Positions 9,468 to 63,464 of a stretch of 64,000 bases of DNA are shown here, piece by piece (position 1 is the stretch's first letter; every line of letters starts with the position of its first letter). A model generated the notes under the pieces. The model did no database searches and had not been told where the DNA came from. It saw nothing but the letters and a program-made list of their open reading frames with translations. The position numbers and the translations under genes are program-made. The stretch spans positions 72,900 to 136,899 of the forward strand of contig CAJTHL010000010.1 of NCBI GenBank assembly GCA_910576205.1, read 5' to 3'. This stretch comes from Clostridia bacterium. Its GTDB lineage: Bacteria; Bacillota; Clostridia; Lachnospirales; Lachnospiraceae.

Positions 9468-9607
9468 TGTCTGTTCCCCCCTTACCAAATACATAAAATT
9501 AGCAGATACTTCCATACAAAAAGTATATAACCTTGTCATTCTTTATGAAAATGCCACAAAACACTTGTTTTTTATGGGGATTTCCGATACAATTTGTAGT
9601 ATAGAAA

Positions 9608-11176: not shown

Positions 11177-11362
11177 GCCAGCCTTAACCAGGCGGGGAAT
11201 CGCCGTAAGCCAAAAAGTCCAGCGCCCTTAAAAATTTAACAGGCTTTACACCAGAACATCCGGAAAAATAATTGTAAAGGGGGAGGCATTATTATATAAT
11301 ACCTTTGGAATTTCCTTTTTTAAGGAAACCCCCGGTATTTTAAAGAAAGAGAGGGCAAAAAT

Positions 11363-12175
11363 ATGAGGGCGACGGTTATTGTGGACAATATCGCAGCGGA
11401 AACACTTAAGGGAGAGTGGGGCCTCTGTATTTATATTGAATATACAGACAGGAAGGTCTTACTGGACGCCGGTTCCTCAAAGCTTTTTGTGGAAAACGCA
11501 GAAAAACTTGGCCTTTCCCTAAAGGACATTGACTACGGCGTTTTGTCCCACGCCCACTACGACCACGGAAACGGGATGATACCCTTTTTCAAAATCAACG
11601 ACAAGGCGAAATTTTATCTGCGGGACGCGTGCGGGGAGAACTGCTACGCAAAAAAATGGATTTTCAGGAAATACATCGGGATTCCCAGAGGGATTCTTAC
11701 AGAATATAAAGACCGTATTGTCCCTGTGGCTGGAGACTGTACCATCGCGGAGGGAATCTATCTTGTTCCCCACAAAACGCCGGGGTTGTCCGCTATGGGC
11801 CAGCGGGAAAAAATGTACCTTAAGGGACGGGACGGATGGCGGCCCGACGATTTTTCCCATGAGCAAAGCCTTGTATTTGACTCCCCCCAGGGCCTAATCA
11901 TTTTCAACAGCTGTTCCCACGGCGGGGCCGACCATATTATCCGCGAGGTCTGCGACACATTTCCAGACAAAAAAGCCTATGCCCTGATAGGAGGCTTCCA
12001 CCTCTTTAACAAACCCCGGGAGGAGGTACTCTCCCTGGCCAGACGGATAAAGGACACCGGCATCCAGACTGTCTATACCGGGCACTGCACGGGAAACCAG
12101 GCCTTTGGAATCTTAAAGAATGTGCTGGGTGAAAAAGTGCAGAAACTTAAGACCGGGCTGGTGATGGATTTCTGA
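11363..12175 (+). CDS. MBL-fold metallo-hydrolase
   Basis: 270 aa. 'HAHYDHGNG' metal-binding motif; RBS AGAGAGGG. Confidence 0.8.
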   Translation: MRATVIVDNIAAETLKGEWGLCIYIEYTDRKVLLDAGSSKLFVENAEKLGLSLKDIDYGVLSHAHYDHGNGMIPFFKINDKAKFYLRDACGENCYAKKWIFRKYIGIPRGILTEYKDRIVPVAGDCTIAEGIYLVPHKTPGLSAMGQREKMYLKGRDGWRPDDFSHEQSLVFDSPQGLIIFNSCSHGGADHIIREVCDTFPDKKAYALIGGFHLFNKPREEVLSLARRIKDTGIQTVYTGHCTGNQAFGILKNVLGEKVQKLKTGLVMDF

Positions 12176-12208
12176 CACAAAATCTGACATAAAACTTGAA
12201 AAAAGTCA

Positions 12209-12237
12209 TTGACATTTTTCCGCAAGAGTGCTAATAT
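12209..12237 (+). promoter_or_regulatory. sigma-A type promoter for the tRNA gene
   Basis: TTGACA - 17 nt - TAATAT, about 45 nt upstream of the tRNA. Confidence 0.55.
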
Positions 12238-12283
12238 AAATAAGCGTTGTGAAATTACACAACATACGGATGTAACGCCGTAG

Positions 12284-12367
12284 GCGGAAGTGTCGGAACT
12301 GGCAGACGAGCAAGACTAAGGATCTTGTGGCATTCGTGCCGTGTGGGTTCAAGTCCCATCTTCCGCA
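12284..12367 (+). tRNA. tRNA-Leu (type II, long variable arm), apparent anticodon AAG; no encoded CCA
   Basis: Cloverleaf folded by eye. Acceptor GCGGAAG/CTTCCGC plus A. D-stem TCG/CGA. Anticodon stem CAAGA/TCTTG with loop CTAAGGA giving anticodon A34-A35-G36. Variable arm TGGCATTCGTGCCGT. T-arm GTGGG-TTCAAGT-CCCAT. Confidence 0.75.
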
Positions 12368-12500
12368 TTTATCTAAGAGGCTGAAAATGTTGATTTTTCA
12401 ATGTTTTTGGCCCTTTTTGTTTAAGCATGTGAAATTTTGTAAAGGCCTCAACTACCTGCTCGTAATCCGTCTCTTCCAGACAGCGGATACCCCGATCCAG

Positions 12501-12773
12501 CTACTTTGCCAACTGCCTTGTGGGGGCATTATAAATAGCGCTTCCCGTAAATATAGCAACGGCAGCTATAAGAACTGCCAGAATTGCCAGAATCACTCCT
12601 TTTCCACGGTGTTTTTTCCTTCCTTTCTTTTTCGGTCTGTATCGCCTGTTGCCCAATCTCATTTTTTCTCCGTTTGGAAGAGTGTATTCCAGATTAACAT
12701 ATGCGCCGCTTAACTGACAAAGCGTGGTTATTGTGGGCATATCCGGGATTCCAAGCGTATTAAACTCTTCCAT
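12501..12773 (-). CDS. small tail-anchored membrane protein (hypothetical)
   Basis: 90 aa. Soluble N-part, K/R-rich stretch, one C-terminal TM 'VILAILAVLIAAVAIF'. In frame with the upstream Cys-rich ORF, separated only by a TAA and 10 codons. Confidence 0.5.
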   Translation of the reverse strand: MEEFNTLGIPDMPTITTLCQLSGAYVNLEYTLPNGEKMRLGNRRYRPKKKGRKKHRGKGVILAILAVLIAAVAIFTGSAIYNAPTRQLAK

Positions 12774-12803
12774 CAGCCGCTTCCTGTATGCAATAAAGCA
12801 GCT

Positions 12804-12935
12804 TTAGCCACCCGATTTATAACACCCGGCGACAATACACTCTCCGCCAAATGGGCGTCCGTCTGTTTCTGTGCATCCTTTACAGCTGCTTTTAAATCCG
12901 CATCCGGTACAATCAATTCCACAAAGCGTTTCCAT
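12804..12935 (-). CDS. 43-aa cysteine-rich (7 Cys) zinc-ribbon-like peptide; not in ORF track (<60 aa)
   Basis: Manual translation: METLCGIDCTGCGFKSSCKGCTETDGRPFGGECIVAGCYKSGG*. Strong RBS AGGAGG 6 nt upstream of ATG. TAA stop at 12804-12806. Confidence 0.5.
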   Translation of the reverse strand: METLCGIDCTGCGFKSSCKGCTETDGRPFGGECIVAGCYKSGG

Positions 12936-13121
12936 TTTGCATTACCTCCTGCCTAAATTCTGCTGGCTATAATCCCGAATTATCCTACCATACCAGCCGT
13001 CAATATTCAATTCCCAGAGGACAGTTTTTTGCTTATATATGTATTTTTTTTCTGCAATCTGGAAAATTCCAGATGCATATAGTATAATACTCTCTATAAA
13101 CAGCAATAGGAGGATTTTATT

Positions 13122-13844
13122 ATGATTCACAGAAAACCATTCCTTTTTACACTTGCCCTGGTGTGTGCCCTGTGCCTTGGGGCCTGTGGGAAAGCCCCGG
13201 CAAATACCCAGCCGCCGGCCGCGCCGGCCGAAACGGAAAAAGAGAACCCAGACAGTAAAAACGCCGATGTGGCGGCCGCACCGGAAACGGAAGCCCCGAC
13301 CCCTACCCCCGCCCCGCCGCCAGACGTTTCCATCCCTCAGGACAACGCCGCCGCCCAGTCCGGAGAAGCCTCCGGCATCACTGTGGAGGAAGCGGAAGGC
13401 ATTGCCCTGGAGCATGCGGGCGTTTCCCGGGAGGAGGTCTCCTATATCCGCACGGAGCTGGACATGGATAACGGCGTACAGGAGTACGAAGTGGAATTTT
13501 ATGTAGGGAGCAAAGAATACGATTACGATATCGATGCGGCCACAGGCAGCATACGCAACTATGACTTCGAGATTGAGAATGATTTCTATCATCACAATGA
13601 TCGCCACCACGGCGGAAACTCCCAGGGCTCTTCCTCCGGCATCACTGAAGATGAGGCAAAAAGAATCGCTCTGGCCCAGGTACACGGCGCGGATTCCTCC
13701 CATATCCGCCTGGAGACAGACTACGACGACGGCTTCCTGATTTACGAGGGAAAAATCGTCTACAACGAAATGGAGTATGAGTTTGAGATCGACGCCGCCA
13801 CGGGAACCATTCTGGAGTGGGACGCAGAATCTGTTTTTGATTGA
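13122..13844 (+). CDS. lipoprotein with two PepSY domains
   Basis: Lipobox 'LCLGACGK', Pro/Ala-rich linker, two 'GITVEEAEGIAL.../GITEDEAKRIALAQV...' PepSY-like repeats. RBS GGAGG. Confidence 0.75.
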   Translation: MIHRKPFLFTLALVCALCLGACGKAPANTQPPAAPAETEKENPDSKNADVAAAPETEAPTPTPAPPPDVSIPQDNAAAQSGEASGITVEEAEGIALEHAGVSREEVSYIRTELDMDNGVQEYEVEFYVGSKEYDYDIDAATGSIRNYDFEIENDFYHHNDRHHGGNSQGSSSGITEDEAKRIALAQVHGADSSHIRLETDYDDGFLIYEGKIVYNEMEYEFEIDAATGTILEWDAESVFD

Positions 13845-49065: not shown

Positions 49066-50340
49066 CTAGGAGGGTATCATGGCCGAAAAAGAAAACCAGC
49101 CCTCCTCACATGTCAATACGCTGGTGCCCTTGTTTTTCCTGATTACCGCGTCCACGTTCCGAAGCCCGATGCCGTGACGGAAGGCGTTCCCCTTGGTGGT
49201 GACAATGACATTTCCCTGGATGCGAAGGGGCTCCTTTACCGGATTGCGGATGGACAGAATCAGCCAGCCCTCCTCCATCGTCAGCTTAAGCTTGATTATC
49301 CTCTGGGTTTCCAGCTTCCCGCAGGCCTCGATGGCATTGTCCAGGAGATTTACCAGAAGTACGATCAGATCCTCCTCGTCCATGGAAAGCCCGGACAGAT
49401 CGTTTACCGCCATGGTTACGGCAATGCCCTTTTCGCAGGCCTCCTGATATTTCCGGTTTAGCACAATGTTGACTACCCTGTGATTGGTGTTTACCGCGTC
49501 CCCGCTCTTTCGAATGCCTCCCACAAGCCGGGAAATATAGGATAAAGCATCCTCCTTCTGTCCATCCAGGAGCATCCCCTGGATGGACTGGAGCTGGTTC
49601 TTATAGTCGTGGAGATACCGCCGCTGCTGCTCATACTGGGCCTGGATACTCTGGTACAGCTCCATCTGGTTCTGAATCCGTTCCTGGGACAGCCGCGCCT
49701 CCTGCAGCTTCCCCTCTGTCTCCAGAAAATTTCCGAAAAAATAAAAAACGCCCATCCACACCACCCCAAAGGCTGACAACGCCGCCAGCCGGGCCGCGTT
49801 TTCCCCTCCATGGGAATCCTGGGAAATCATGCTGAGGGCCATAAGCACTACCATGCCACAAAGGGGAAAGAGGGCAAACATCCCCCTCCCCTCCTGTGTC
49901 TGCCACAGGGCGCGCTTCCTGTACCGGAAATGAAAGGCATATATAGCGGCGAGGAACAGGCCGTCCGTAAGAATTTCTATGGCATTGCCTAAGGCAGTCG
50001 TCCATTCTCCTGGAAACATCAAGAAAACAGATAACACCAGCATATTCACAAGCCAGTAAACCGCACACAGCAGGAGAGAAAAAACCAGATTTTTCCATAT
50101 TTTTATATAATAATACATCTGCGCTACAAAAGCCACAAGAACTATAAACCGCACCGGCTGTAAAATATACGGGGGAATCTCTGTGAAGGCTATCACAAGG
50201 AAAGCCGCCGTAAAAGCCCAGGAAGCTGTGCGGCCTGCCGGGGATTCCGGGCGGCGAAGGGGCGCAAGGGTATCAAAAAACAGCCTGCAGCTAACGCCGG
50301 CCATCCAGGACAGCAGAAGGCACTTTATTAACACTTCCAT
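49066..50340 (-). CDS. sensor histidine kinase, AgrC/LytS-like (HPK10, GHKL ATPase)
   Basis: 424 aa. 6-7 TM N-domain; H-box 'RRYLHDYKNQLQSI'; N/G boxes at C-terminus. Confidence 0.75.
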   Translation of the reverse strand: MEVLIKCLLLSWMAGVSCRLFFDTLAPLRRPESPAGRTASWAFTAAFLVIAFTEIPPYILQPVRFIVLVAFVAQMYYYIKIWKNLVFSLLLCAVYWLVNMLVLSVFLMFPGEWTTALGNAIEILTDGLFLAAIYAFHFRYRKRALWQTQEGRGMFALFPLCGMVVLMALSMISQDSHGGENAARLAALSAFGVVWMGVFYFFGNFLETEGKLQEARLSQERIQNQMELYQSIQAQYEQQRRYLHDYKNQLQSIQGMLLDGQKEDALSYISRLVGGIRKSGDAVNTNHRVVNIVLNRKYQEACEKGIAVTMAVNDLSGLSMDEEDLIVLLVNLLDNAIEACGKLETQRIIKLKLTMEEGWLILSIRNPVKEPLRIQGNVIVTTKGNAFRHGIGLRNVDAVIRKNKGTSVLTCEEGWFSFSAMIPS

Positions 50341-50367
50341 AATGCTTCACCTCTCTCAGGCCGCCAG

Positions 50368-51630
50368 TCAGTCTGTCGCAGATTCTGTAATTCCAGGCGG
50401 TGATTCATCGTATTCGCAGATATACCCCGTATTCCCTTTATAGGAGGGCGCCGCATCCAGCATATCGTCCGGCACATCGTTCAGGTAATATCTGCCGTCC
50501 TCCTTGTTGTACATCATAACAAGACAGCTCTCCTCCACCTCCCGGCCGTCCTCGGTCATTCCCCGGTAGGTGGGCTCCATTTTATAGTCCCCGTAATGCC
50601 TCCAGAATCCGTAATAAGCCCGGAATGGCATTTCCCGCCTGCTGCCGTCCGGTTCTATCCAGTTGTAGCCAAATGTGGTTTCCCCATCCATGCGCCCGTT
50701 GTTTGCCCCCACGTAAAAGGTGATGCCTGTCATTCCCTCCTCCCCTATCCGGGCTTCTATGGCCTCCCGCTCCTCCTGGGAGGTGATTACCGCAAGATAC
50801 CCGCCTCTCTTCCTGCATTCCTCCCTGGCCTCCCGCCAGGTGAGATCTTCCACTACCAGATCATAAGTATGATCTGCCGACGTATGCCGCCCTGTCTTTA
50901 GAAGGGACTGAAGCTCTTTCCAGTCGTAGTAAATCTCTGGCGACTTTGCCCGGCTCCTGTCGTAGACTTCCTTAAGAGCTGCCTCATATTCCTCCCCGGA
51001 TACCTGTTTTCCTTCCCAGCTGTACTGGAAAATAAAGTTGTCCTCCTCGTCCAGCACAGGGCCGCCCTCCGGGTCCCCGTACTCTCCCTCCGCCATGAGA
51101 ATCCATTTCCCATCCTTCAGCGCAAAAACCCGGTCATAGTAGAATCCCATATTTCCGTCGGAATTGCACAGGAGGCCTTTCCTCTCCAGATAATCAAAAT
51201 TAAGCCGGTAGGTCTGGACGGCGTCTACCTCCCTGTGACTGTATGTGAGAATCAGACATCCCCCGGCCTCAAACCCGCTGTCGCACACCAGCTCGGGAAT
51301 CTGGTCATCATCCACATAAATAAAGCTATAGGTACAGCCTGCCGCATATTTCCCCCCTGCTTCCTGGTCCAGGGCCTCCAGATACTTTGCATACGCTGTC
51401 CGCCAGGCGTCCCCAAAAGTCTCCTCACGCAAGGCTTCATTTCCGGTTTCTTTTTGTTCTTCCCGGCTTTTTCCATTTTCCGTCTCCCCGGAAGCTTTCG
51501 GCGGGTTTGCTCCGGCGCGCTCCCTGGGAAGTCTCCCGGAATCCTCCTGGCTGCATCCCACAAGGGCCAGCGCCAGAAGGATTCCCCCTATGGCTCTTTT
51601 CAGATATCCGTATCTTTTGCATGTTTTCAT
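50368..51630 (-). CDS. lipoprotein with C-type lectin-like domain
   Basis: Start at MKTCKRYGYLKRAIGGILLALALVGCSQ. CTLD signature 'WREAREECRKRGGYLAVITSQEEREAI...YVGANNG'. Confidence 0.6.
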   Translation of the reverse strand: MKTCKRYGYLKRAIGGILLALALVGCSQEDSGRLPRERAGANPPKASGETENGKSREEQKETGNEALREETFGDAWRTAYAKYLEALDQEAGGKYAAGCTYSFIYVDDDQIPELVCDSGFEAGGCLILTYSHREVDAVQTYRLNFDYLERKGLLCNSDGNMGFYYDRVFALKDGKWILMAEGEYGDPEGGPVLDEEDNFIFQYSWEGKQVSGEEYEAALKEVYDRSRAKSPEIYYDWKELQSLLKTGRHTSADHTYDLVVEDLTWREAREECRKRGGYLAVITSQEEREAIEARIGEEGMTGITFYVGANNGRMDGETTFGYNWIEPDGSRREMPFRAYYGFWRHYGDYKMEPTYRGMTEDGREVEESCLVMMYNKEDGRYYLNDVPDDMLDAAPSYKGNTGYICEYDESPPGITESATD

Positions 51631-51631
51631 C

Positions 51632-52345
51632 TCACATTGCCCCTTTATACGCCACAAAGGCCTCCCTGACGCTCCGGTAGCGAAGCCTTGGAATGGGCAG
51701 CTCCTCCCCGGTATCAAGAAACACCCTGTAATTACTGATCCTGCGGATATGCCGCATATTTACCAGGTAACTCTTGTGAATGCGCAAAAAGCCATACCCC
51801 TGAAGCCTCTCCTCTACGGCGTCCAGCTTATCGTATAACTGATAAGTTACAGGCCCTGTCTCCATATAGGAAAAGAGGGTTTTGTGCCTGCGGCTCTCCA
51901 CATAGAGAAGGTTGTCGGTGTAAAGGTTTTTCTCTCCCTCCAGAAAAGAAAACCGCACCCGTGCCAGCCGCATTTTTTCCAGAATGGCCTCCATACACTC
52001 CGCCACTCCCGCCTCCAGGGCATCCTTTAGAATATAACGCACGGCGTTGACCTTGTACCCCTCCAGCACATAGCTGATAAAGGCCGTCACAAGGACTATA
52101 TACGTGTCCGAGTGAAATGCACGGATTTCCATGGCTGTCTGGATGCCGTCCACCTCTTCCATGTTGATATCCAGAAATACCACGTCATATTTTACCCGGT
52201 TTTCCCCCTCCTCCAGAAAAGCCTTCCCGGAGGGGAACAGGCTGATCTCATAGGGAAGCCTGCGGGCATCCAGGTATTTTTCCAGAAGGGCTTTGATTTT
52301 TTCTAAGTAATACGGTTCGTCGTCGCAGATGGCAAGGCGCAGCAT
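51632..52345 (-). CDS. LytTR-family response regulator
   Basis: 237 aa. Receiver 'LAICDDE...VVFLDINM' plus LytTR DNA-binding domain. Confidence 0.8.
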   Translation of the reverse strand: MLRLAICDDEPYYLEKIKALLEKYLDARRLPYEISLFPSGKAFLEEGENRVKYDVVFLDINMEEVDGIQTAMEIRAFHSDTYIVLVTAFISYVLEGYKVNAVRYILKDALEAGVAECMEAILEKMRLARVRFSFLEGEKNLYTDNLLYVESRRHKTLFSYMETGPVTYQLYDKLDAVEERLQGYGFLRIHKSYLVNMRHIRRISNYRVFLDTGEELPIPRLRYRSVREAFVAYKGAM

Positions 52346-52379: not shown

Positions 52380-53330
52380 TCACCAGATCTTTTTCAACAA
52401 TTCTTTCAATTCCTTTAATTCTGTTTCACAAAAAAGTTTATGATTGGAATTTAATAGATTAAGAATCCGCTTCCTGTCTATTACACAAGTATGTATCTCT
52501 GTGGCATTTTCAAATCTCCCGGAAGCATTCTGACAAAAAAACGGTACAAACATACAGGACCAGAAAGGGGCTAAGGGCGCAATCCTGGTACTCCATACGT
52601 CGTAACCGACAGCCTTTTGTTTATCTATCCATTCATCATAACTACAAGTACATTGGGCAAAAGCAAAAGGAATATGCGATGAATCATCTAATTTAAGAAA
52701 GGAAACAATATCCAGCCCCCCATCTCCTCCACGGATCCTGTCATACCTCTCATCCTGATCTATAATCTTTGTTGTCTGTGCTCCCAGGCATTCAGCAAGC
52801 TGCATAATTCGTGTACGCAGATTCCCATGAAATACACCCTCGTCACGTGCCGTTCCAAATAATTCTGTCTGTGCATTTACAGGCATTAAACATTTCATAA
52901 ATGGATAACAGTATTTTTCAAATGCATAGGTAACCTTCTGCATAGAAAGCTTATCCATAAAACTTATATTTGAGCAAATCAGCAAAAAGAAATAATGTAA
53001 ATATTCTCCAGTTAAGGTTTCTTTTATGGTGATACATTGTCCATCCTCAATCTCAAAAGGATAGTATTCTGAAAACATTTCATTTCGATATTTGATTACT
53101 TCGTAATAATTATCTATATTTGTACTTAATTTATCATAATTCGCCGAGTGAACGCTTTGTCCCCGCTGCAAATCCAGAATATCTTCATCAAAAAACAAAT
53201 CAAGTACGTCATCTTTGGTTATTATGTGATCATCTACATACAAGCATCGAAACTCTATATAATCTGCCCAGCGATTCACATGATACCCACTCCAATCTGG
53301 TATTTTTAATGAATTCTCTGTCTTTATCAT
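52380..53330 (-). CDS. hypothetical protein in low-GC island (partner of ParB-like protein)
   Basis: 316 aa, no recognisable motif except 'GGDGGLDIVSFLKLDD'. ~30% GC versus ~57% flanks. Confidence 0.55.
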   Translation of the reverse strand: MIKTENSLKIPDWSGYHVNRWADYIEFRCLYVDDHIITKDDVLDLFFDEDILDLQRGQSVHSANYDKLSTNIDNYYEVIKYRNEMFSEYYPFEIEDGQCITIKETLTGEYLHYFFLLICSNISFMDKLSMQKVTYAFEKYCYPFMKCLMPVNAQTELFGTARDEGVFHGNLRTRIMQLAECLGAQTTKIIDQDERYDRIRGGDGGLDIVSFLKLDDSSHIPFAFAQCTCSYDEWIDKQKAVGYDVWSTRIAPLAPFWSCMFVPFFCQNASGRFENATEIHTCVIDRKRILNLLNSNHKLFCETELKELKELLKKIW

Positions 53331-53338
53331 AATCGTTT

Positions 53339-54487
53339 TTATTTCCTTAATAGCTTTCTTAGCTGTTCCAGTACTTCCGGGTCAGAAGCAAGCTTCTCTA
53401 TACTAATCCCCTGCTCTTCATTCCGTCCAAAATTAGCTTCCAATCCTCCCGAGATTGTCTTTAATAAACGATCAATATCTTCCAATAGCCCCTTCGCCTC
53501 AAGTGGCTCTTTGCCAAGCTGCTCAATGGCATCTTTAGCCTGTTTTAATTGTTGTTTTGCCTTTGAAAGCATTTCAATAAACGCCTCGGCTGGAGCTGAA
53601 GTATACAGCAAAGCTTCGTCTACAGTACTGCCTTTTTCCAGCCTGGCCAATGCTGCAGGAGATTCTGTAATCTTTGCAAGGTCAGAGATCTCCCTTACCT
53701 CTCTGATAACGGCTTTTCCGGGATAAAACATCCATGTGAATATTTTTTTAAAATGTTCTTCCTCTAAGCTGCTTAGGGAGGCATCCGTTGTGCCAGACAA
53801 GCCAATATATTCTGATATCCCCCTAAAGCCCAAAGCAGTTGTCAGCCAGGAAAACTGAATATCCTCTTCCTTAATATCTGCACCATAATAGGCTCTGTCA
53901 TTTGCTCTCTCATACAGCTTCAGAGCCTTATGGAGCTTTGCAACATAGTCCGTGCGGCTCCCAATAATTTTTGCCAGTTTCTGGTATATTTTATCTAATT
54001 GCGTATTTTGAATATGAATCTTATATAACTGGTCAAGATAACGCGCCTTTTCCAGCGCTCCCCAGTCCTTTACACCTGTAATATGCCTATAGCCCAGATA
54101 ATCCAGAACATCCTCTTTATTTGCATAAAGGATACAAGGTATTACCTCTGGTTTAAACTTTGCTTCCAGAATCACATTTTTAATAGCCTGCTGCCTTATC
54201 TTGGTCAGACCTGGATTATTCAGCAATTTTAAAGCGGCTAACCGCCGGTTTCCCTCTACAACGATATACCTTCCATCTGCTTCCCTTACAACCAGAAGAG
54301 GCTCCGCATCTGAATATCCCATTTCAGCAATGGAAAGCATTAATTCAACAATATTTCCATATTTTACCATATAATCTATAATTTTATTTTCATCCGTCTC
54401 ACCTTGCAGGCGTATGGGTAACCTTGGATTTCTCTCATCAAACCACAAGCTTTTTAACTCTATTTCCAGTTTTTTTCTATCTGCCAT
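53339..54487 (-). CDS. ParB/Srx-fold (ParB N-terminal nuclease-like domain) protein
   Basis: Start at MADRKKLEIELK (RBS GGAGG); ORF track begins at an upstream TTG. 'DGRYIVVEGNRRLAALKLL' ParB-box GxRR motif; long helical C-terminus. Low GC. Confidence 0.6.
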   Translation of the reverse strand: MADRKKLEIELKSLWFDERNPRLPIRLQGETDENKIIDYMVKYGNIVELMLSIAEMGYSDAEPLLVVREADGRYIVVEGNRRLAALKLLNNPGLTKIRQQAIKNVILEAKFKPEVIPCILYANKEDVLDYLGYRHITGVKDWGALEKARYLDQLYKIHIQNTQLDKIYQKLAKIIGSRTDYVAKLHKALKLYERANDRAYYGADIKEEDIQFSWLTTALGFRGISEYIGLSGTTDASLSSLEEEHFKKIFTWMFYPGKAVIREVREISDLAKITESPAALARLEKGSTVDEALLYTSAPAEAFIEMLSKAKQQLKQAKDAIEQLGKEPLEAKGLLEDIDRLLKTISGGLEANFGRNEEQGISIEKLASDPEVLEQLRKLLRK

Positions 54488-54602
54488 AAGGACCTCCAAA
54501 GCATTTTTATCAAACGATATTATAACCTTGTCAGCAATAATTATAAATGAATCCTTAATAAATAGCAATGTATAAAAAGTATTTATATGCTGTAAGAAAA
54601 GA

Positions 54603-54650
54603 GACGCCCACCGCCCCTTTTAAAGGCTGTGACGTCTCTTTCCTTTATAA
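54603..54650 (-). terminator. rho-independent terminator after anti-sigma gene
   Basis: Minus strand gagacg-loop-cgtctc followed by TTTTCTT. Confidence 0.5.
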
Positions 54651-54678
54651 AATACGCTTCACAATCCCAGAGCTGATT

Positions 54679-55881
54679 TTACTGCTCCGGCACTTTATAC
54701 ATATACACGGCAAAAGTTGCGGTTCCGTCTCCATTCCATGTCATGGTGGGGACTTCAAGGTCTGTAACGCCGTCGCTATACATATATCCAAGAATCCCCA
54801 AAGCGCCCGTGGCAGGCTCCTTCCCAAAGAGTTCCTCACAGAAGCAGGTGCCGCTTCCCCCACTACCATCTTCTCCCACCTGGTAGGAATAGGGAACCTC
54901 ATTTCCTTCCACTTTCAGAACCTGCACAGTAGACTCGATAACCGTGGCGTACTGATCCATGAATTCCTTTGTCAGAGTTTTCTCCTGGCTCATGTTTATA
55001 AGCGTCTCCATCCAGTCGTCCACCGCCAGATCTGACTCACTCTTCTCTATGGGCTCCTCCGGGGCATCCCATTCTGCCTGCAGTTCCCTTAAAAACGCTT
55101 CCGCCGCCGCCGGATCTCCCTTGGCTTTATCAATAGGCACGGTAAACAGGGCGTTGACACCGTTAAAGTCTTCATTTCGCGTAATTTCCCCTGTAGCCTC
55201 ATTGAAATTATACGCCTGGGAATCGTAAAAAGTGCCGGAATTGACGCCAAAGTAAATTCCCCTGTCGGCAAACATTTCGATGTTGTTTGTCTCCGCCATG
55301 CGGTAGGTAACTCCGTTCTGTACAAACTCCGAATAGCCGCCGTGCATGGTTATACAGTTGTATTCATTTGGATTTAACCCTCCAATGTACAGGGACGCAA
55401 AGAAGGGATCCTTTCCATAGTTTTCGTCGCTTGTATCTGGCATAGGGGTTCCATCTGTGCGCTCAATGGCCGTGGCAATATACATACGCTCATCCAGAAG
55501 GCTTCCGGCCTCTGTCCCCATATATTTACTGACGTCCTTTCCCCCCACAATTCCCAGAAATGTGATTTTATAGTCCCCAAACTCCTGACTTTCGTTGACC
55601 AGCACTGCGTTTTCCCCCGCAAATGTCTCTGCCAGCTTATCGTCGTTCATCTCCTCTGCCATCTGGGAAGGCGTAAAATATTTGTATGCGGCAAATCCTG
55701 TAATGGAACCAAATGCCAGCGTCAGACACGCCGCCAGGACGACTGCCGGGTATTTTTTTCTTCCTCGTTTCATATAAGTCATCTCCTCTGCCTGCTTAAG
55801 GATACTCTGGTTAAGCCGTGCTTCCGGTCCTCTCTCTGGAGACAACGCCTGCTTTAAAATCCTGTCCATATCTCTGCTCAT
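54679..55881 (-). CDS. anti-sigma factor-like membrane protein
   Basis: 400 aa. Cytoplasmic N-terminus, one TM 'AVVLAACLTLAFGSITGFAAY', large extracytoplasmic domain. Overlaps the sigma gene by ~60-70 nt. Confidence 0.55.
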   Translation of the reverse strand: MSRDMDRILKQALSPERGPEARLNQSILKQAEEMTYMKRGRKKYPAVVLAACLTLAFGSITGFAAYKYFTPSQMAEEMNDDKLAETFAGENAVLVNESQEFGDYKITFLGIVGGKDVSKYMGTEAGSLLDERMYIATAIERTDGTPMPDTSDENYGKDPFFASLYIGGLNPNEYNCITMHGGYSEFVQNGVTYRMAETNNIEMFADRGIYFGVNSGTFYDSQAYNFNEATGEITRNEDFNGVNALFTVPIDKAKGDPAAAEAFLRELQAEWDAPEEPIEKSESDLAVDDWMETLINMSQEKTLTKEFMDQYATVIESTVQVLKVEGNEVPYSYQVGEDGSGGSGTCFCEELFGKEPATGALGILGYMYSDGVTDLEVPTMTWNGDGTATFAVYMYKVPEQ

Positions 55882-56398
55882 TTAAAACAACCTCCAATTC
55901 TCTTTCCAGCAGCTTTTTGGCCCTGTATAGCCGGGTTTTTACCGTGCCCTCCGGGATTTCCAGAATCCGGGAAATCTCCGAGAGTTTCTGCCCCTCCATG
56001 TAAAAGAGAAGGACTGGCAGGCGGTATTTCTCCGGCAATGCCTGGACGGCCTGCCGCACCATGACCCGCTCTTCCCTGGTAATGTACTGCTCTTCCGGGG
56101 AACCCTTTCCGTCTGGTGGATCCTGGGTCATGTCCTCTATTGGAATCTGAGGACCCGTGATCTTCTGCCGCCATGCGGTTTTCCGTTTCCGGTTGGTCCA
56201 GATATGGACGGCCACGGACAGAAGATAGCTCTTGGGATTCCTTGACAATTCCAGTTTTCCCCTGATTTCCACCATTTTCAGAAAGGTGTCCTGGTACAGA
56301 TCGTCCGCATCCTGTCTGCTGTGGGTAAGATACAGGCAAAAAGCGTAGACGTCTTTTCCGTAAGCCTCAATATACGCTTCCAGCGTTTCCAGTTTCAT
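55811..56398 (-). CDS. ECF-type RNA polymerase sigma-70 factor
   Basis: Start at MKLETLEAY (RBS GGAGGAAACAC). Region 2 'DADDLYQDTFLK'; region 4 'LSEISRILEIPEGTVKTRLYRAKKLL'. Confidence 0.8.
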   Translation of the reverse strand: MKLETLEAYIEAYGKDVYAFCLYLTHSRQDADDLYQDTFLKMVEIRGKLELSRNPKSYLLSVAVHIWTNRKRKTAWRQKITGPQIPIEDMTQDPPDGKGSPEEQYITREERVMVRQAVQALPEKYRLPVLLFYMEGQKLSEISRILEIPEGTVKTRLYRAKKLLERELEVVLNEQRYGQDFKAGVVSRERTGSTA

Positions 56399-56507
56399 GT
56401 GTGTTTCCTCCATTGCGCTCCAGACTGTCTGGTTGAAGAACCATTGCCCTTCACTCATATAGGGTCATAAGAGGAAGAAAAGTTTCAGATTATTATAATT
56501 TTTATTT

Positions 56508-57413
56508 TCACGCACTGTTTGATTTCCGGCGTCTCTTTCCCTCATAACCGGAAAGAACCAGCCCGGTTATTGCAAGCCCGGTTCCCCCAAGGGAAATCCA
56601 GGTCACAGGCTCCTCTAATATCAGCGCGGAGGTCACGGTGGTTATGACGGGAACCATATAAATATAGATACTGGTTTTTACGGCCCCCAGAGCCCGCACC
56701 GCAAAATTCCAGGTGAGAAAACAAAGCGCAGAGGCTCCGACTCCCAGGTAAACTATATTGAAAAGGTTTGTCATATCTGTAAAGCGTTCCGCTCCCAGGC
56801 GGAAATCAAAAAACGCCAGGGCAGGCATCATAAACAGGATGCCATAGAAAAAGGTTCTGCGGGTTATAAGAAGAACCGGGTAACCAAAGCCGTTGATCTT
56901 CCGGGTCAGGACAGAATAAACGCCCCACACAAAGGCTGCGGCCACTGCCAGAATATCCCCCAGGGGATTTATCTCCCATCCCGCCCCCTGGAGGCTGATA
57001 AGGACAATCCCCGCCATGGCCACCACGAACCCCACAAAAAAGCCCGGACGCAGCTTTTCCTCTGATTTTCCGGTAAAATACACCAGAATAGCCGTAAAAA
57101 AGGGAGCTACCGAGGTCATAACCCCCACATTGGAGGCCAGGGTATAGGTCAGGGCAATATTTTCCAGCAGATAATACAGGCAGATTCCGCAAAATCCTGC
57201 CATGGCAAATACCGCTTCCTGCCTGATGGTTACTCCCTTCATCCTCCGGGGGCAGACAGGCCACAACAGAAGATATCCCATGACAAAGCGGAAAAACAGG
57301 ATTTCTACCGGCCAAAAATCCTCCAGCAGTATTTTTGTGGAGATAAATGTAGTGCCCCAGATCAGTATTGTAAATAATGCCGCCAGATGGCCGGTCATTC
57401 GTTTATTGTCCAT
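56508..57413 (-). CDS. DMT-superfamily (EamA) transporter
   Basis: Start at MDNKRMTGHLAALFTILIWG; 10 TM, two EamA repeats. Confidence 0.75.
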   Translation of the reverse strand: MDNKRMTGHLAALFTILIWGTTFISTKILLEDFWPVEILFFRFVMGYLLLWPVCPRRMKGVTIRQEAVFAMAGFCGICLYYLLENIALTYTLASNVGVMTSVAPFFTAILVYFTGKSEEKLRPGFFVGFVVAMAGIVLISLQGAGWEINPLGDILAVAAAFVWGVYSVLTRKINGFGYPVLLITRRTFFYGILFMMPALAFFDFRLGAERFTDMTNLFNIVYLGVGASALCFLTWNFAVRALGAVKTSIYIYMVPVITTVTSALILEEPVTWISLGGTGLAITGLVLSGYEGKRRRKSNSA

Positions 57414-57414
57414 G

Positions 57415-57688
57415 TTATGTCTCCCTCTCTTTTTTGCAAAGTATCTCCCGGTATGCCCCAGGGGGGTAAGTCCCATTAAGCTGTTGAAACAGCCGGTAAA
57501 ATGGCTCTGATCCGAAAATCCCGTCCGGGCGGCGGCCAGGGCAGGCGTCTTTCCCTGCTAATGGCACATTCTTTCTCCTTGCAGGACAGAATCCTCTCCC
57601 CCTCCTCCACAAAACCAACCACATAATACTCATGAAAATGGTTAGGAAAGGACTGCGCCATCCCTTCAAAATGGCAGCTTATGGACAA
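57415..57688 (-). pseudogene. AraC-family regulator remnant (N-terminal cupin start and extreme C-terminus in different frames)
   Basis: 70-aa ORF 'HFHEYYVVGFVEEGERILSC' (AraC cupin) and 84-aa ORF ending 'FYRLFQQLNGTYPPGAYREIL' (AraC HTH C-terminus); ~270 nt in total. Confidence 0.4.
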
Positions 57689-59718: not shown

Positions 59719-61101
59719 TCAATCCTGACGGATTTTACTTCTGATCGCCTCAACATCCTTTCTTTTTTCCTCTTCGCTGAGTTCCGCGAAAGGAATCAGA
59801 CAATTATGTACCCTCTTTATGCTGTCTGTGACAGGTCCAAACTTCCAATTATGGATGTAATGATACCTGTTCCACCGGATATGCTCCAGTTCCGCAATGA
59901 CTTCCATGCTGACTCCTTGTTCAAGCAGACGGTTGATCGTATGCATATAATCCGATGAGCTCACATTTGAGTAGCGTTTAAAAGAATCAAGCTTTTCCCA
60001 TGGCGTTCCCCCATATCTCTTCTGATAAAACTCATGCTGCCTGCGGGCAGCCTCCATAGACCGTCCGTTGAAGATGATCTCGGGAGTCGCCGTTTCCTTT
60101 GCCGTCCCGAAGCATATGATTCTGTCGTTTCCCAAAATACTGCTGATAATATCGCCGTTTGGAGCATAGACATAAATCTGGTGACGGAGGGGCGCCGCTG
60201 TCAGCAGTCTCCCCGCTATCTCAATATTGTGGTCCGCCTCCTTGCCGCCACAGATTATAATCCTGTCAAAGCTCTCCATTTCCGCAAATTCATAGACACC
60301 GTCATCGTGAAAAATGATTTCATCAGGCTTCATTTGCGCAAGTTCTGTATGTTCCCTTCTGAATTCCGCTCCATTTCCATAAATATGATATACAAAATGC
60401 TGCCCGGGATCAATCAGATTCATCTGCAATCCATACAGCAGAATATTTTTTCCTACGTTCCCAAATCCGATGATCGCCACCTTTTCGCTGTGCGTGACCG
60501 GATAGTCCTTCCAGTACTGCCTTGCACAGTTTTCCGAAATACTGAAAACCGTAATCAGCGGGTTCTCAATATTCTGCCTTGCAATATTTTCCAACATGAT
60601 ATAGACGTTTTTGCTCTTCAGCGACTCATAATTCCGATTATAAAAAGCAAGATTCCTGGCATCGCTTGAAAACATAAGCACATATCTTTCCGCACTGTCT
60701 ATAAACTTCTCTTCCCCCCGTATCCGCTGTTTTAATTCCAGATTCTCAAACAGGTATCCCGCATAAACAGAATCCCCATAAACAACCGTCGTATTAAAAT
60801 CCAGAAGCTTAACCCGGTTTATAATGTCCGTCATCTTGTTAAGCCCGTTAATCAACAGGTTAAGAGTTGCCGCCAGTGCCAGAAAACGGGCAATCTGCAA
60901 AAGACCTCCCACTGGAATCCCGCTCTCGGTTGAACCGGAGTAGAGCTTGATAGACGAGTAGACAGCATCCAGAAAAGGGTATACACGGTCCTGTCTGGCA
61001 AAGACAGGAAAATAACAATATATGCCAATAAAAAATGGAAGTATTTTATACAGTATGCTTAGGAGTCTGCCCATTGTCCGATAATTATTTTTCATGACCA
61101 T
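59719..61101 (-). CDS. membrane protein: 2 TM + tandem Rossmann-like (GxGxxG) domains + C-terminal RyR domain
   Basis: 460 aa. TM helices at N-terminus; 'VAIIGFGNVGKNILLYG'; C-terminal 'ELEHIRWNRYHYIHNWKFGPV...LIPFAELSEEEKRKD' matching the RyR-domain consensus. Lower GC than flanks. Confidence 0.6.
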   Translation of the reverse strand: MVMKNNYRTMGRLLSILYKILPFFIGIYCYFPVFARQDRVYPFLDAVYSSIKLYSGSTESGIPVGGLLQIARFLALAATLNLLINGLNKMTDIINRVKLLDFNTTVVYGDSVYAGYLFENLELKQRIRGEEKFIDSAERYVLMFSSDARNLAFYNRNYESLKSKNVYIMLENIARQNIENPLITVFSISENCARQYWKDYPVTHSEKVAIIGFGNVGKNILLYGLQMNLIDPGQHFVYHIYGNGAEFRREHTELAQMKPDEIIFHDDGVYEFAEMESFDRIIICGGKEADHNIEIAGRLLTAAPLRHQIYVYAPNGDIISSILGNDRIICFGTAKETATPEIIFNGRSMEAARRQHEFYQKRYGGTPWEKLDSFKRYSNVSSSDYMHTINRLLEQGVSMEVIAELEHIRWNRYHYIHNWKFGPVTDSIKRVHNCLIPFAELSEEEKRKDVEAIRSKIRQD

Positions 61102-61133
61102 TCCCTTTTTTCCACATGAAGGAGACGCCCGGC

Positions 61134-63326
61134 TCAGTCTTCAACTTTCTCACCGTTTTCCCATTTCACTACAGTGCCGTCTGCGTTGGTTCTGATGCAG
61201 TTAAATTCCTTGCCGTCTTTAAATTCTCCTTCCAGGATATCTCCATTGGCAAAAGTCAGTTTCCCCTGACCATTTATGAGGCTGTCCTTCCATTCGCCCT
61301 CGAGCACATCTCCATTGGCATAGGTCAGTTTCCCCTGGCCGTTACGACTGTTATCTGCCCATTCGCCTTCATACACATTTCCGTTGGCGTAGGTATAGAC
61401 TCCCTGGCCGCCACGGCTGCCGCTTTTCCATTCGCCCTCATACGCGTCCCCGTTGGCATAGGTCATGGTACCCTTTCCGTTGAACAGGCCATTCACCAAT
61501 GCGCCCTTGTAGACGGATCCGTCTTTGAAAGTTATCGTTCCGTTACCGTTAGGCGTGCCATCCTTTGTCGGGCCGGTGTAAACGCCGTTATCCCATGGGA
61601 TGTTATCATCCTTCACCCATTTCTCGTTGACCGTAGTACCGTCCGCCTTGGTATAGATGCCGTCGCCGTCCTTTACGCCTTCCTTGAATTCACCTTGGAA
61701 AAAGCTTCCGTCAGCATAGGTCAGCGTTCCCTGTCCCTGGTACTTGTTGTCTTTCCATTCGCCCTCGTACACTACGCCGTTATAGTATGTCATAATACCC
61801 TGACCACTGTAGTTGCCATCCTCAAATTCACCCTCATAGACACTGCCAGAAGCGAAGCTCAGCGTTCCCTGACCATGGTATCTGCCATCTTCCCATTCGC
61901 CTTCATAGGCCTTGTAGGTACTTCCGTCGGGGTAGGTTATCGTACCACTTCCATGGGGCGTACCGTCCTTTGTGGTGCCGGTGTAAGTGCCGTTATCCCA
62001 TGCAACGGTTTCAATCTTTTGTCCATGTACCCATGTTTCATTTTCTTCCACGCCGTCTACAGTAGTGTAGACGCCGTCGCCGTGCTTTTCACCTTCGCTA
62101 AATCCGCCCTTATAGACAGAACCATCGGCATAAGTCAGTTTTCCCTGGCCGTCTGGCAGATCGTCCTTAAATCCGCCCTCGTAGACAGAGCCATCCGTAT
62201 AGCATGCCGTTCCCTGGCCGTCGATCTCGCCTTCTTTCCATTCTCCCTCGTAAGTCGTCCCGTCCTCCCCTGTAAAAGTCCCTTGACCTTCGGGCTGTTC
62301 CTTTTTCCACTGGCCGGTATAGGTGCCGGAAGTCCCGCCAGGGGTCGTATAGGCTTTGTCGGTGACATTCCCCATCCGGACAATGAATACAATAACCAGC
62401 ACTGCCACAGCTACGGCAATGCCCCCCAGAATAAGTTTCAAATGCAAAGCTTTTTTTGTTTTCTTCTCCGTCTCGTTATCCGTGAAGGAAAAATCCGCCT
62501 TCCTTTCCGGCTGGCTCTCCTGTCCCGCCTGCAAAACCGGCGCGGGCTCCTGTCCGGATTCCGGATCTGGTTCCCGGGCAGGCTCCTGTCTGTATCCCGA
62601 AGCCGACCCACCGGCAGATTCCTGCGCCGGTCCTGGCTGCGACTCAATAATCAGAGACTTGTCAAACACATCGCCGCTGACGGACCTGATGGTTCCCCGT
62701 ACTGCTTTTAGGTCATTAATACTCTTCCGGTTGATGGAGGCATCACGGAAAAAATTGATAAAGGCGTCGGAAATATCATACCTGGACAGCGCATCCTGTT
62801 CCAGCAGAGTGGACAGGCTGGTAAAAGACGACTTCATGGCCCTCATAATATCATTGGAAGTATTATTCGTATTGGTAGCGATATTCGCACCCTGATTAAG
62901 GATCTCATTCTTCACGCCCCGCTCTATAACAGGCTGGTCTGTAGTATCTCCCAGATGAAGGTGTTCCTCCAGCGAGACAAACACAACCTGCTTCCGATTG
63001 TTTACGGCAGTCAGAAGTTCCAGAAAACAGGCATAGCTCTCTATATAGCTCTGGCTGATAAAAGCTATAACCACATCTGCGCCGCGCACATTGCGCAGCA
63101 TAGGAACGATCCACTTATCGTTCACCTTGTCAAAAGCTTTGTCCGCATAAACCCGCAGACCATACTTTTTCTGCATGGGCACCACAGCAGATTTAAACAC
63201 AGCCTCCCAGTTATCGCTGGCGTAGCTTATAAAAACATAAGGCTTTCTCTGAGAGCACTCCGTAATCTTTAGATTTTTCTCCAGAAACTCCGAACGCTCT
63301 TTCTTTTGTACTTCATTCAATCCCAT
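61134..63326 (-). CDS. TIR domain - TM helix - MORN-repeat protein (N-in/C-out topology predicted)
   Basis: Start at MGLNEVQKK (RBS GAGGGAGA). TIR motifs 'KPYVFISYASDN' and 'SQSYIESYACFLELL' (SxxYxxSxWCxxEL). K-rich segment then TM 'LILGGIAVAVAVLVIVFIV'. About 14 MORN repeats 'YEGEWKDGxxxGQGxxTYADGSVYEGEF'. Confidence 0.7.
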   Translation of the reverse strand: MGLNEVQKKERSEFLEKNLKITECSQRKPYVFISYASDNWEAVFKSAVVPMQKKYGLRVYADKAFDKVNDKWIVPMLRNVRGADVVIAFISQSYIESYACFLELLTAVNNRKQVVFVSLEEHLHLGDTTDQPVIERGVKNEILNQGANIATNTNNTSNDIMRAMKSSFTSLSTLLEQDALSRYDISDAFINFFRDASINRKSINDLKAVRGTIRSVSGDVFDKSLIIESQPGPAQESAGGSASGYRQEPAREPDPESGQEPAPVLQAGQESQPERKADFSFTDNETEKKTKKALHLKLILGGIAVAVAVLVIVFIVRMGNVTDKAYTTPGGTSGTYTGQWKKEQPEGQGTFTGEDGTTYEGEWKEGEIDGQGTACYTDGSVYEGGFKDDLPDGQGKLTYADGSVYKGGFSEGEKHGDGVYTTVDGVEENETWVHGQKIETVAWDNGTYTGTTKDGTPHGSGTITYPDGSTYKAYEGEWEDGRYHGQGTLSFASGSVYEGEFEDGNYSGQGIMTYYNGVVYEGEWKDNKYQGQGTLTYADGSFFQGEFKEGVKDGDGIYTKADGTTVNEKWVKDDNIPWDNGVYTGPTKDGTPNGNGTITFKDGSVYKGALVNGLFNGKGTMTYANGDAYEGEWKSGSRGGQGVYTYANGNVYEGEWADNSRNGQGKLTYANGDVLEGEWKDSLINGQGKLTFANGDILEGEFKDGKEFNCIRTNADGTVVKWENGEKVED

Positions 63327-63464
63327 TGTTGTTTCTCCCTCATAAATTCTTGTCCTAAGTTTATATCCATTATAAAACACAGTTTACTAGAAATTAACGA
63401 AACTTTCAATACTTTATGCATGTTCCCCAACCTATCGGCGCATCCGCATGCCTTAAGCCGGTAC

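Follow-up and report, generated by a model that had tools for sequence, protein, structure and literature searches.

A 64,000-nucleotide stretch of a Lachnospiraceae genome (Clostridia bacterium, GenBank assembly GCA_910576205.1, contig CAJTHL010000010.1, positions 72,900 to 136,899; hereafter, the window) encodes two adjacent membrane proteins, the products of genes denoted here A and B, that might jointly form a TIR-based signaling module. Both open reading frames (ORFs) are on the minus strand and together occupy exactly positions 59719-63326 in the ORF list, as stated in an earlier note that was made from the sequence alone and that proposed a Thoeris-like membrane signaling system for this pair. 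Gene A (61134-63326; 730 amino acids (aa)) encodes a TIR domain followed by a linker, one transmembrane (TM) helix and 13 MORN repeats, as indicated by the ORF itself, Pfam matches, the ribosome-binding site and the N-termini of homologs. Gene B (59719-61101; 458-460 aa) encodes a TM region, tandem RCK domains and an RyR (ryanodine receptor) domain; this assignment is based on the ORF, Pfam, a search of PDB sequences, an AlphaFold2 (AF2) model and Foldseek.

Organization of the locus

Translation of gene A most likely starts at the ATG at 63326, which is preceded, at a distance of about 8 nt, by the ribosome-binding site GAGGGAGAA. The frame is formally open back to a GTG at 63380; given that the homologs of gene A begin with MGLNE or MALNE and that GAGGGAGAA is located before the ATG at 63326, the GTG is not the start. 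The region upstream of gene A (63327-63420, minus strand) additionally contains promoter-like hexamers (TTGAAA-17-TAAACT and TATAAT) which had been taken as the pair's own promoter elements; such hexamers are present at a frequency that does not exceed that in shuffled sequence and are thus a weak argument. The gap between the two genes (61102-61133, minus strand) contains a ribosome-binding site, AAGGGA, and a terminator scan of this gap detected no terminator-like site. The second ATG of gene B, at 61095 (MKNN...), is better spaced from the AAGGGA site and agrees with the consensus of the homologs, and is probably the true start; depending on which start is used, the two genes are separated by 32-38 nt. 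Because this gap is short and lacks a terminator-like site, genes A and B are probably co-transcribed. The promoter and terminator scan was uninformative with respect to independent transcription, the counts being equal to those in shuffled sequence. A 531-aa ORF on the plus strand (61116-62711) lies entirely within the coding region of gene A, in the antisense orientation, and is treated here as a by-product of gene A rather than a real gene.

The claim that the pair has a lower GC content than its surroundings holds for gene B (0.442) and for the part of gene A that encodes the TIR module (0.458), compared with 0.517 for the window as a whole, and fails for the MORN-encoding part (0.517). 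A horizontally acquired low-GC island was considered on these grounds and rejected: only gene B and the TIR module have low GC, and a relative with a 99% identical RyR protein carries the pair at the same site. With the MORN part at the mean GC of the window and the site shared with this relative, there is no clear island boundary.

The TIR-TM-MORN protein

The N-terminal TIR domain is recognized by Pfam (TIR_2, PF13676) at residues 31-121 of the gene A product, with an E-value of 2.2e-9 and a score of 38.3 bits (cut-off 28). When PDB sequences were searched with this module, the matches had E-values of about 0.3-1 only; the TIR fold was confirmed by structure search. The AF2 model of residues 1-235 (pLDDT 87.7, pTM 0.86), compared with the PDB using Foldseek, yields almost exclusively TIR domains among the matches listed, all the best ones included; the matches comprise RPS4, RPP1, L6, RUN1, ROQ1, SPARTA, AbTir, BtTir, ThsB and SARM1. 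The alignments with plant TIR domains extend over about 200 columns, and therefore the entire 228-residue module (62643-63326, minus strand; residues 1-228), delineated from the AF2 model and Foldseek, is a single extended TIR domain. It contains the nearly invariant motif SQSYIESYACFLEL, in which Glu103 is invariant across 20 sequences. This residue, the glutamate of 'FLELL' that was singled out in the earlier note, aligns with the glutamate of the 'CVREL' motif of RPS4, the C-x-x-E-L motif being retained. We take the RPS4 glutamate to be the catalytic position of plant TIRs, and E103 is accordingly a putative catalytic residue.

The TIR module is followed by a low-complexity linker rich in Pro, Glu and Gln and by a single TM helix at approximately residues 316-334, immediately after the segment KKTKKALHLK (linker and helix, 62307-62642, minus strand). 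The rest of the protein (61134-62306, minus strand; residues 341-730) consists of MORN repeats and is the most variable part of gene A. Pfam (PF02493) finds 13 MORN stretches with an E-value of 5e-79, close to the approximately 14 repeats counted earlier. The N-terminus is hydrophilic, so that the protein lacks a signal peptide, in line with the earlier reading. In the pooled homologs with a single TM helix, there are 71 Lys and Arg residues among the 15 positions before the helix and 32 among the 15 positions after it. By the positive-inside rule, this bias predicts an N-in topology, with the TIR domain in the cytoplasm and the MORN array outside, the same arrangement that was proposed from the sequence alone. 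A search of NCBIfam produced no useful match for either gene A or gene B.

A membrane RCK protein with a C-terminal RyR domain

In the AF2 model of the gene B product (pLDDT 88.3, pTM 0.79), membrane helices are followed by two alpha/beta domains (residues ~100-340) and a helical C-terminal domain. The N-terminal membrane region (60805-61101, minus strand; residues 1-99) is modeled as a long helix (2-36), a short helix (42-55), a loop (56-65) and a second long helix (66-98), a layout that resembles M1-P-M2; R72 in the second long helix is conserved in at least 80% of the sequences across the wider family. The central part (60067-60804, minus strand; residues ~100-345) consists of tandem RCK/KTN (TrkA_N-like) domains located C-terminal to the membrane helices. 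Foldseek aligns approximately 500 columns of the model to full-length GsuK chains, and from these matches, gene B has a GsuK-like order of membrane helices, RCK1 and RCK2, with an RyR domain added. The two Rossmann-like folds of the earlier note are thus tandem RCK domains of the kind that it had suggested. Pfam detects neither Ion_trans_2 nor TrkA_N in gene B, and the GxGxxG motif is only partly conserved. The string TVVYGD was considered as a counterpart of the selectivity filter TVGYGD and discarded as a chance hhalign match within strand 1 of an RCK domain.

The C-terminal part (59719-60066, minus strand; residues 346-460) is an RyR domain of the Repeat12 type, delineated using Pfam, the alignment with the phage protein gp68 (see below) and Foldseek. 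The Pfam match (PF02026, residues 399-458) has an E-value of 1.7e-8 and a score of 35.0 bits against a cut-off of 27.4; RyR repeats in PDB sequences match gene B with an E-value of 4e-13, and the Foldseek comparison connects the C-terminus with Repeat12 of RyR3. A search with residues 1-345 alone against 1.84 billion representative sequences (phmmer) produced 434 matches, each a cluster at 50% identity. Among the best 150 of these 434 TM-RCK family matches, 129 are full-length proteins, and 127 of them contain the C-terminal RyR domain, which is also the most conserved region of the family. Two family members, P0194 and P0234, lack this domain: P0234 has an unassigned C-terminal region, and P0194 ends in MORN repeats, so that MORN can also be fused to an effector-type protein. 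An origin of gene B as a phage-borne protein was considered and rejected, phage matches being confined to the short RyR domain.

The suggestion that this domain could bind a messenger derived from NAD finds an experimental precedent, reported in two 2026 preprints, in phage RyR proteins, the ligand residues of which are kept in gene B. Phage RyDEP splits 2'cADPR as well as 3'cADPR (isomers of cyclic ADP-ribose, cADPR) via H75 and D117, with additional ligand contacts from W78 and H100, and its homologs are nanomolar sponges (PMC13232231). The RyR Tad protein gp68 of Pectobacterium phage CB1 binds 3'cADPR at 43 nM, as well as 2'cADPR and cADPR, with H129/W132, K147/H154 and K170/D171 as the ligand residues (10.64898/2026.06.04.730250). 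Gene B finds gp68 directly in a tblastn search, and BLASTP aligns residues 397-449 of gene B with residues 119-171 of gp68, ungapped and with 36% identity. In this alignment, H407, W410, H432, K448 and D449 of gene B correspond to H129, W132, H154, K170 and D171, that is, five of the six ligand residues; the sixth, K147, is replaced by T425 in gene B and is Lys in the consensus of the gene B family. Four of the gene B positions also match H75, W78, H100 and D117 of RyDEP at identical spacing. All five residues are invariant or nearly so in the gene B family. By this analogy, the RyR domain of gene B is predicted to bind a nucleotide of the ADP-ribose (ADPR) type.

The same residues raise the question of whether the domain senses or removes such a nucleotide. 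Gene B could serve to remove the signal at the membrane, to which it would be tethered, as a glycosidase or sponge like RyDEP that either restrains a self-acting, NAD+-depleting TIR or shields a mobile element from the Thoeris system of its host. This explanation draws on the alignment of H407 and D449 with the RyDEP dyad H75/D117, at the same spacing, and on the fact that RyR domain proteins of demonstrated function have so far all been sponges or hydrolases. We nevertheless regard it as quite improbable: it offers no explanation for the conserved TM region and tandem RCK domains, some 345 residues that are joined to RyR in 127 of the 129 representatives, phage matches are restricted to the short RyR domain, and a stable chromosomal pairing with TIR in a probable operon fits a signal and its receptor better.

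Conserved linkage of TIR and RyR genes

The gene B family is abundant in gut Clostridia: 192 clusters at 90% identity were scored, and taking one genome per species yielded 79 distinct loci. ORFs were called in the fetched loci and searched with hidden Markov models built in this analysis; loci flanked on each side by 2.5 kb or more are referred to as full-flank loci. Among close gene B orthologs (57-99% identity), 16 of 25 distinct loci have a TIR gene as an immediate neighbor, and 13 of 16 full-flank loci have one within three genes. For distant members (28-34% identity), the respective counts are 14 of 47 and 16 of 33. The fetched loci, some of which are duplicates, contain 1101 ORFs, 44 of these encoding TIR domains, and 41 of the 44 are no more than three genes away from the RyR gene. 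Thus, TIR and RyR families neighbor each other far above chance in relatives, and the synteny anticipated in the earlier note is borne out. The gene order is mostly the reverse of that in the window: the RyR gene usually precedes the TIR gene, the order TIR-RyR being that of the window and of its 99% identical relative, L094. In the respects on which the earlier note had staked its case, then, the TIR and RyR assignments are supported, the two genes are syntenic in relatives, and the MORN region is predicted to be outside the cytoplasm.

The partner proteins are diverse. Among the 81 immediate neighbors of distant members, Pfam identifies TIR_2 in 14, ThsB_TIR in 4 and DUF4062 in 4, and the TIR and DUF4062 proteins are accompanied by WD40, TPR and STAND NTPase domains. 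The TIR domains that accompany the RyR gene are fused to differing sensor-type regions, TM plus MORN, WD40 or STAND/TPR. The TIR-WD40 partner in L038 shows a weak match to ThsB, and DUF4062-STAND proteins are encoded beside the RyR gene in L047, L052 and L068. On a plasmid of Arcobacter sp. (CP146529, 5650-9373; L101), genes for a TrkA_N protein with one TM helix (Pfam E-value 5e-9), a 166-aa RyR protein and a DUF4062-TPR protein are encoded in a row, flanked by genes for a type I restriction R subunit, an integrase, a recombinase and a transposase. Here the module is split up, and the host belongs to another phylum.

Chance adjacency of two unrelated membrane proteins would accommodate the existence of solo gene B orthologs and the variable gene order, with TIR-RyR in the window and RyR-TIR in most loci. 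We consider such an explanation hardly credible in view of the 41 of 44 TIR ORFs noted above and of the presence of TIR or TIR-like genes next to the family in two phyla, in clades that are only 30% identical, and with different TIR subfamilies.

A DHH-DHHA1 family phosphoesterase of 513-571 aa is encoded beside the RyR gene, on either strand, in 12 loci (L001 of Parablautia muri, at 10073-11662, L010, L011, L014, L015, L016, L020, L025, L029, L034, L075 and L081); no such gene is present in the window. Some loci show other arrangements. In L098 (3818-5392), a solo RyR gene, an ortholog with 74% identity, is followed by genes for proteins of 238, 147 and 142 aa; the first of these has no Pfam match and no confident Pfam match is on record for the other two. 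These three small genes may be an alternative partner set. In four Oscillospiraceae loci (L007-L009 and L022), the RyR gene is followed by a gene for a 189-aa protein with a TM segment and three MORN repeats and without a TIR domain, which might represent a remnant or else a minimal partner.

Evolutionary pattern and genomic context

The TIR module is 78-89% identical across all partner proteins. For the RyR proteins with which it is partnered, identity amounts to 59-72% (in L075 and L081, to about 30%), and the MORN parts share 34-55% identity with their homologs. Elsewhere, the same TIR module is fused to TM plus TPR, to FHA (without a TM helix), to DUF4190 or to Zn-ribbon repeats, or is truncated. 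We associate such a pattern, in which the enzyme is constant, its sensor or anchor ends vary and its partners are exchangeable, with conflict systems.

A low-GC islet (52380-54568, minus strand; GC 0.38 against 0.517 for the window) located 5 kb from the pair encodes a 409-aa ParB-like protein that matches the PADLOC model PD-Lambda-5_A (E-value 3.7e-26) and an adjacent 316-aa protein without matches; together, these are probably a PD-Lambda-5-like defense pair. In L094, the order HAD, TIR-MORN, RyR, nth, 115-aa ORF, SDR is kept, and a type I-C CRISPR-Cas system (Cas3, Cas5d, Csd1; 9531-13383) is located 2 kb from the pair. Where L094 has this CRISPR-Cas system, the window (compared at approximately 54600-57500) has EamA, an extracytoplasmic function (ECF) sigma factor with a putative anti-sigma protein, and the PD-Lambda-5-like islet. 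This looks like a variable hotspot beside the pair. Among 127 neighbors of TIR-linked loci, a few match models of mad2/3, AriA, AbiLi, GajA, HEC-01, ShosA and PsyrA. Altogether, the defense context of the pair is suggestive, not decisive.

A part of this evidence also suits a housekeeping second-messenger circuit, in which MORN would report on the envelope or the environment, TIR would make an ADPR-type messenger, RyR/RCK would adjust the flux of a cation such as K+, and DHH would reset the circuit. The pair is located between housekeeping genes in the window and at the same place in the 99% identical relative; the TIR module, at 78-89% identity, evolves under very strong purifying selection; the DHH-DHHA1 protein in 12 loci completes a layout of synthase, receptor and degrader; RCK domains classically regulate K+ transport; and the gene B family is apparently confined mainly to gut Clostridia. 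This possibility deserves to be taken seriously, even if it appears unlikely. Close orthologs are found in differing contexts, in some cases beside genes for Mob, resolvase or integrase; WD40 and STAND/TPR, to which the partner TIRs are fused, are domains that we associate with immune sensors; and at the C-terminus, MORN, TPR, FHA and Zn-ribbon regions replace one another. Furthermore, to our knowledge, the bacterial TIR signaling systems characterized to date are antiviral, which also counts against a housekeeping role.

Two other gene groups in the window are of note in their own right. Upstream of the low-GC islet (49066-52345, minus strand), there are genes for a sensor kinase of the GHKL type, a protein of 449 aa that weakly matches C-type lectins, and a LytTR response regulator. 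The ECF sigma factor gene mentioned above (55811-56458) overlaps that for the 400-aa putative anti-sigma protein (54679-55881).

Relationship to known systems

The pair resembles Thoeris in that a TIR protein adjoins an effector with a nucleotide-sensing domain. Membrane effectors are found in Thoeris type II (Macro-TM), type V (DUF2270) and type VII (SLATT), and the Thoeris signals are cADPR isomers, the ligands of the phage RyR domains. In contrast to the small, cytosolic ThsB, gene A combines a large, plant-TIR-like TIR_2 module with a TM helix and MORN repeats, and gene B differs from Thoeris effectors in having RyR as the sensor and tandem RCK domains as the body. Yirmiya et al. (2025; 10.64898/2025.12.03.692087), a source considered here in its text and in part of its supplements (including Tables S1 and S3 in part), list 29 putative Thoeris types and add the named types V-XI to types I-IV. 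In this portion of the source, there is no mention of RyR, PF02026, MORN or TrkA, nor of the gene A TIR motifs.

Within the same portion, the closest counterpart by description is type X Thoeris, in which a TIR protein is accompanied by a predicted 'ion channel' effector (10.64898/2025.12.03.692087). According to this description, type X is found in Bacillus sp. BH32 and in Vibrio rather than in Clostridia, and its TIRs fall into the type II ThsB cluster. A comparison of the gene A TIR profile with one type X TIR from the covered part of Table S1 showed no profile similarity (hhalign probability 0.1). A search for the type X effector that used the type X TIR against plasmids (tblastn) led to type II systems, with TIR and Macro, in every locus inspected. 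It seems unlikely that the type X effector belongs to the RyR-RCK family, a comparison made by description and not by effector sequence, because Yirmiya et al., in the portion covered, discuss cADPR and ryanodine receptors without noting an RyR domain.

With phage RyDEP and RyR Tad, gene B shares PF02026 in the form of a single RyR repeat that is expected to dimerize. The phage proteins, however, turn the signal off and are small and soluble, acting as sponges or glycosidases. The RyR domain of gene B forms the C-terminal end of a membrane RCK protein of 460 aa, the gene for which adjoins that for TIR, and is probably a receptor that would switch an effector on, the fusion and the neighborhood being the basis of this assignment.

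Gene B shares the TM-RCK1-RCK2 order of GsuK with the RCK-gated channels and regulators (GsuK, MthK, CASTOR/POLLUX, BK and KtrA/TrkA) and differs from them by the absence of a TVGYG-type filter and by the extra RyR domain. Animal cADPR/RyR signaling likewise involves an enzyme of the ADP-ribosyl cyclase type (SARM1 is a TIR protein) and a membrane protein with Repeat12-type domains. Animal RyRs are, however, 5000-aa, six-TM Ca2+ release channels, and only the RyR repeat of some 60-90 aa is homologous. We know of no demonstration so far that cADPR directly binds an animal R12 domain.

Finally, DUF4062 is a TIR-like NADase, and Swarozyc is a DUF4062 NAD+ hydrolase that is activated by the phage portal (10.64898/2026.05.01.722283). 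Genes for DUF4062-STAND/TPR proteins, akin to those of Swarozyc and Evangelion, adjoin RyR-RCK genes in the three loci named above and on the Arcobacter plasmid, whereas the enzyme in the window is a classical TIR_2 protein and not DUF4062. Neither the Swarozyc preprint nor the Evangelion preprint (10.64898/2026.06.25.731849) mentions an RyR, TrkA or channel partner. In the searchable literature, we found no description of a TIR gene paired with a gene for an RyR domain protein in bacteria. Given this lack of a literature mention, the lack of recognition by PADLOC and the dissimilarity of the type X TIR, the pair is filed here as a TIR signaling system outside any named Thoeris type.

A putative NAD-derived signaling module

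Taken together, the domain identities, the conserved linkage, the RyR domain as an integral part of gene B, the ligand precedent, the evolutionary pattern and the partial defense context lead us to favor, with slight rather than strong conviction, the interpretation of genes A and B as a Thoeris-like, two-component, NAD-derived signaling module.

Several observations weigh against this interpretation. The pair is flanked by housekeeping genes, namely those for endonuclease III (nth), a HAD hydrolase and an SDR protein. PADLOC (2023, v2), including its ThsA and ThsB models, does not match gene A at all and matches gene B only marginally, with Csx3 (E-value 0.023). Many family members have no TIR neighbor (P0006, P0011 and about half of the distant loci), and the recurrent DHH phosphoesterase fits a housekeeping second-messenger circuit equally well. 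With H407 and D449 occupying the positions of the RyDEP catalytic dyad, the domain might hydrolyze its ligand instead of sensing it. Moreover, animal RyR R12 domains bind ATP and ADP analogs, so that the ligand could be an ordinary adenine nucleotide. The membrane part also counts against it. There is no TVGYG-type K+ selectivity filter in gene B, the corresponding loop reading SGSTESGIPVG; SGSTESG is kept in the close clade only, not in the wider family; an hhalign comparison of the gene B family with MthK aligned nothing in the pore; and the Arcobacter relative has a single TM helix. In view of the missing filter, the lack of similarity to MthK, the variable loop and the single-TM relative, pore formation by gene B is a guess from topology.

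If the Thoeris-like reading is correct, the module could operate as follows. A trigger, possibly phage attack or envelope perturbation, would be sensed through or near the MORN-TM part of gene A, upon which the TIR domains would assemble and convert NAD+ to an ADPR-type nucleotide, which could be 2'cADPR, 3'cADPR, cADPR or ADPR. The RyR domain of gene B would bind this nucleotide via H407, W410, H432, K448 and D449, RyR domains of adjacent subunits would pair as they do in the phage proteins, and the RCK ring would pass the change to the TM helices. The outcome might be an ion leak or membrane depolarization, leading to growth arrest or abortive infection. In many relatives, the neighboring DHH-DHHA1 phosphoesterase, the gene for which is absent from the window, would probably clear the signal.

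A more specific version, which we put forward only tentatively and which is less probable than the general one, is that the product of a TIR cyclase is sensed directly by an RyR Repeat12 domain that gates or activates a channel-like RCK protein, with the TIR switched on from the outside via the MORN ectodomain. We are not aware of a description of such external switching for bacterial TIR signaling systems.

If this version is true, an RyR domain would for the first time be given a receptor role that is cellular and not viral, and the module would be a prokaryotic counterpart or ancestor of animal cADPR/ryanodine receptor signaling. The general model, if right, would reveal the purpose of cellular RyR domains, the functions demonstrated so far being only those of phage decoys; the decoys, in turn, may be copies of a host receptor of the gene B kind. 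It would also provide a small bacterial system in which to ask whether RyR Repeat12 couples cADPR-type ligands to ion flux, a question to which, for animal ryanodine receptors, we know of no answer. A TIR anchored in the membrane with its MORN repeats facing outward, together with the variants that have TPR, FHA or Zn-ribbon regions instead, would suggest surface-triggered TIR signaling. Within TIR-based bacterial immunity, the pair would represent a new class of effector and sensor, one that is common in gut Clostridia, with 434 clusters at 50% identity.

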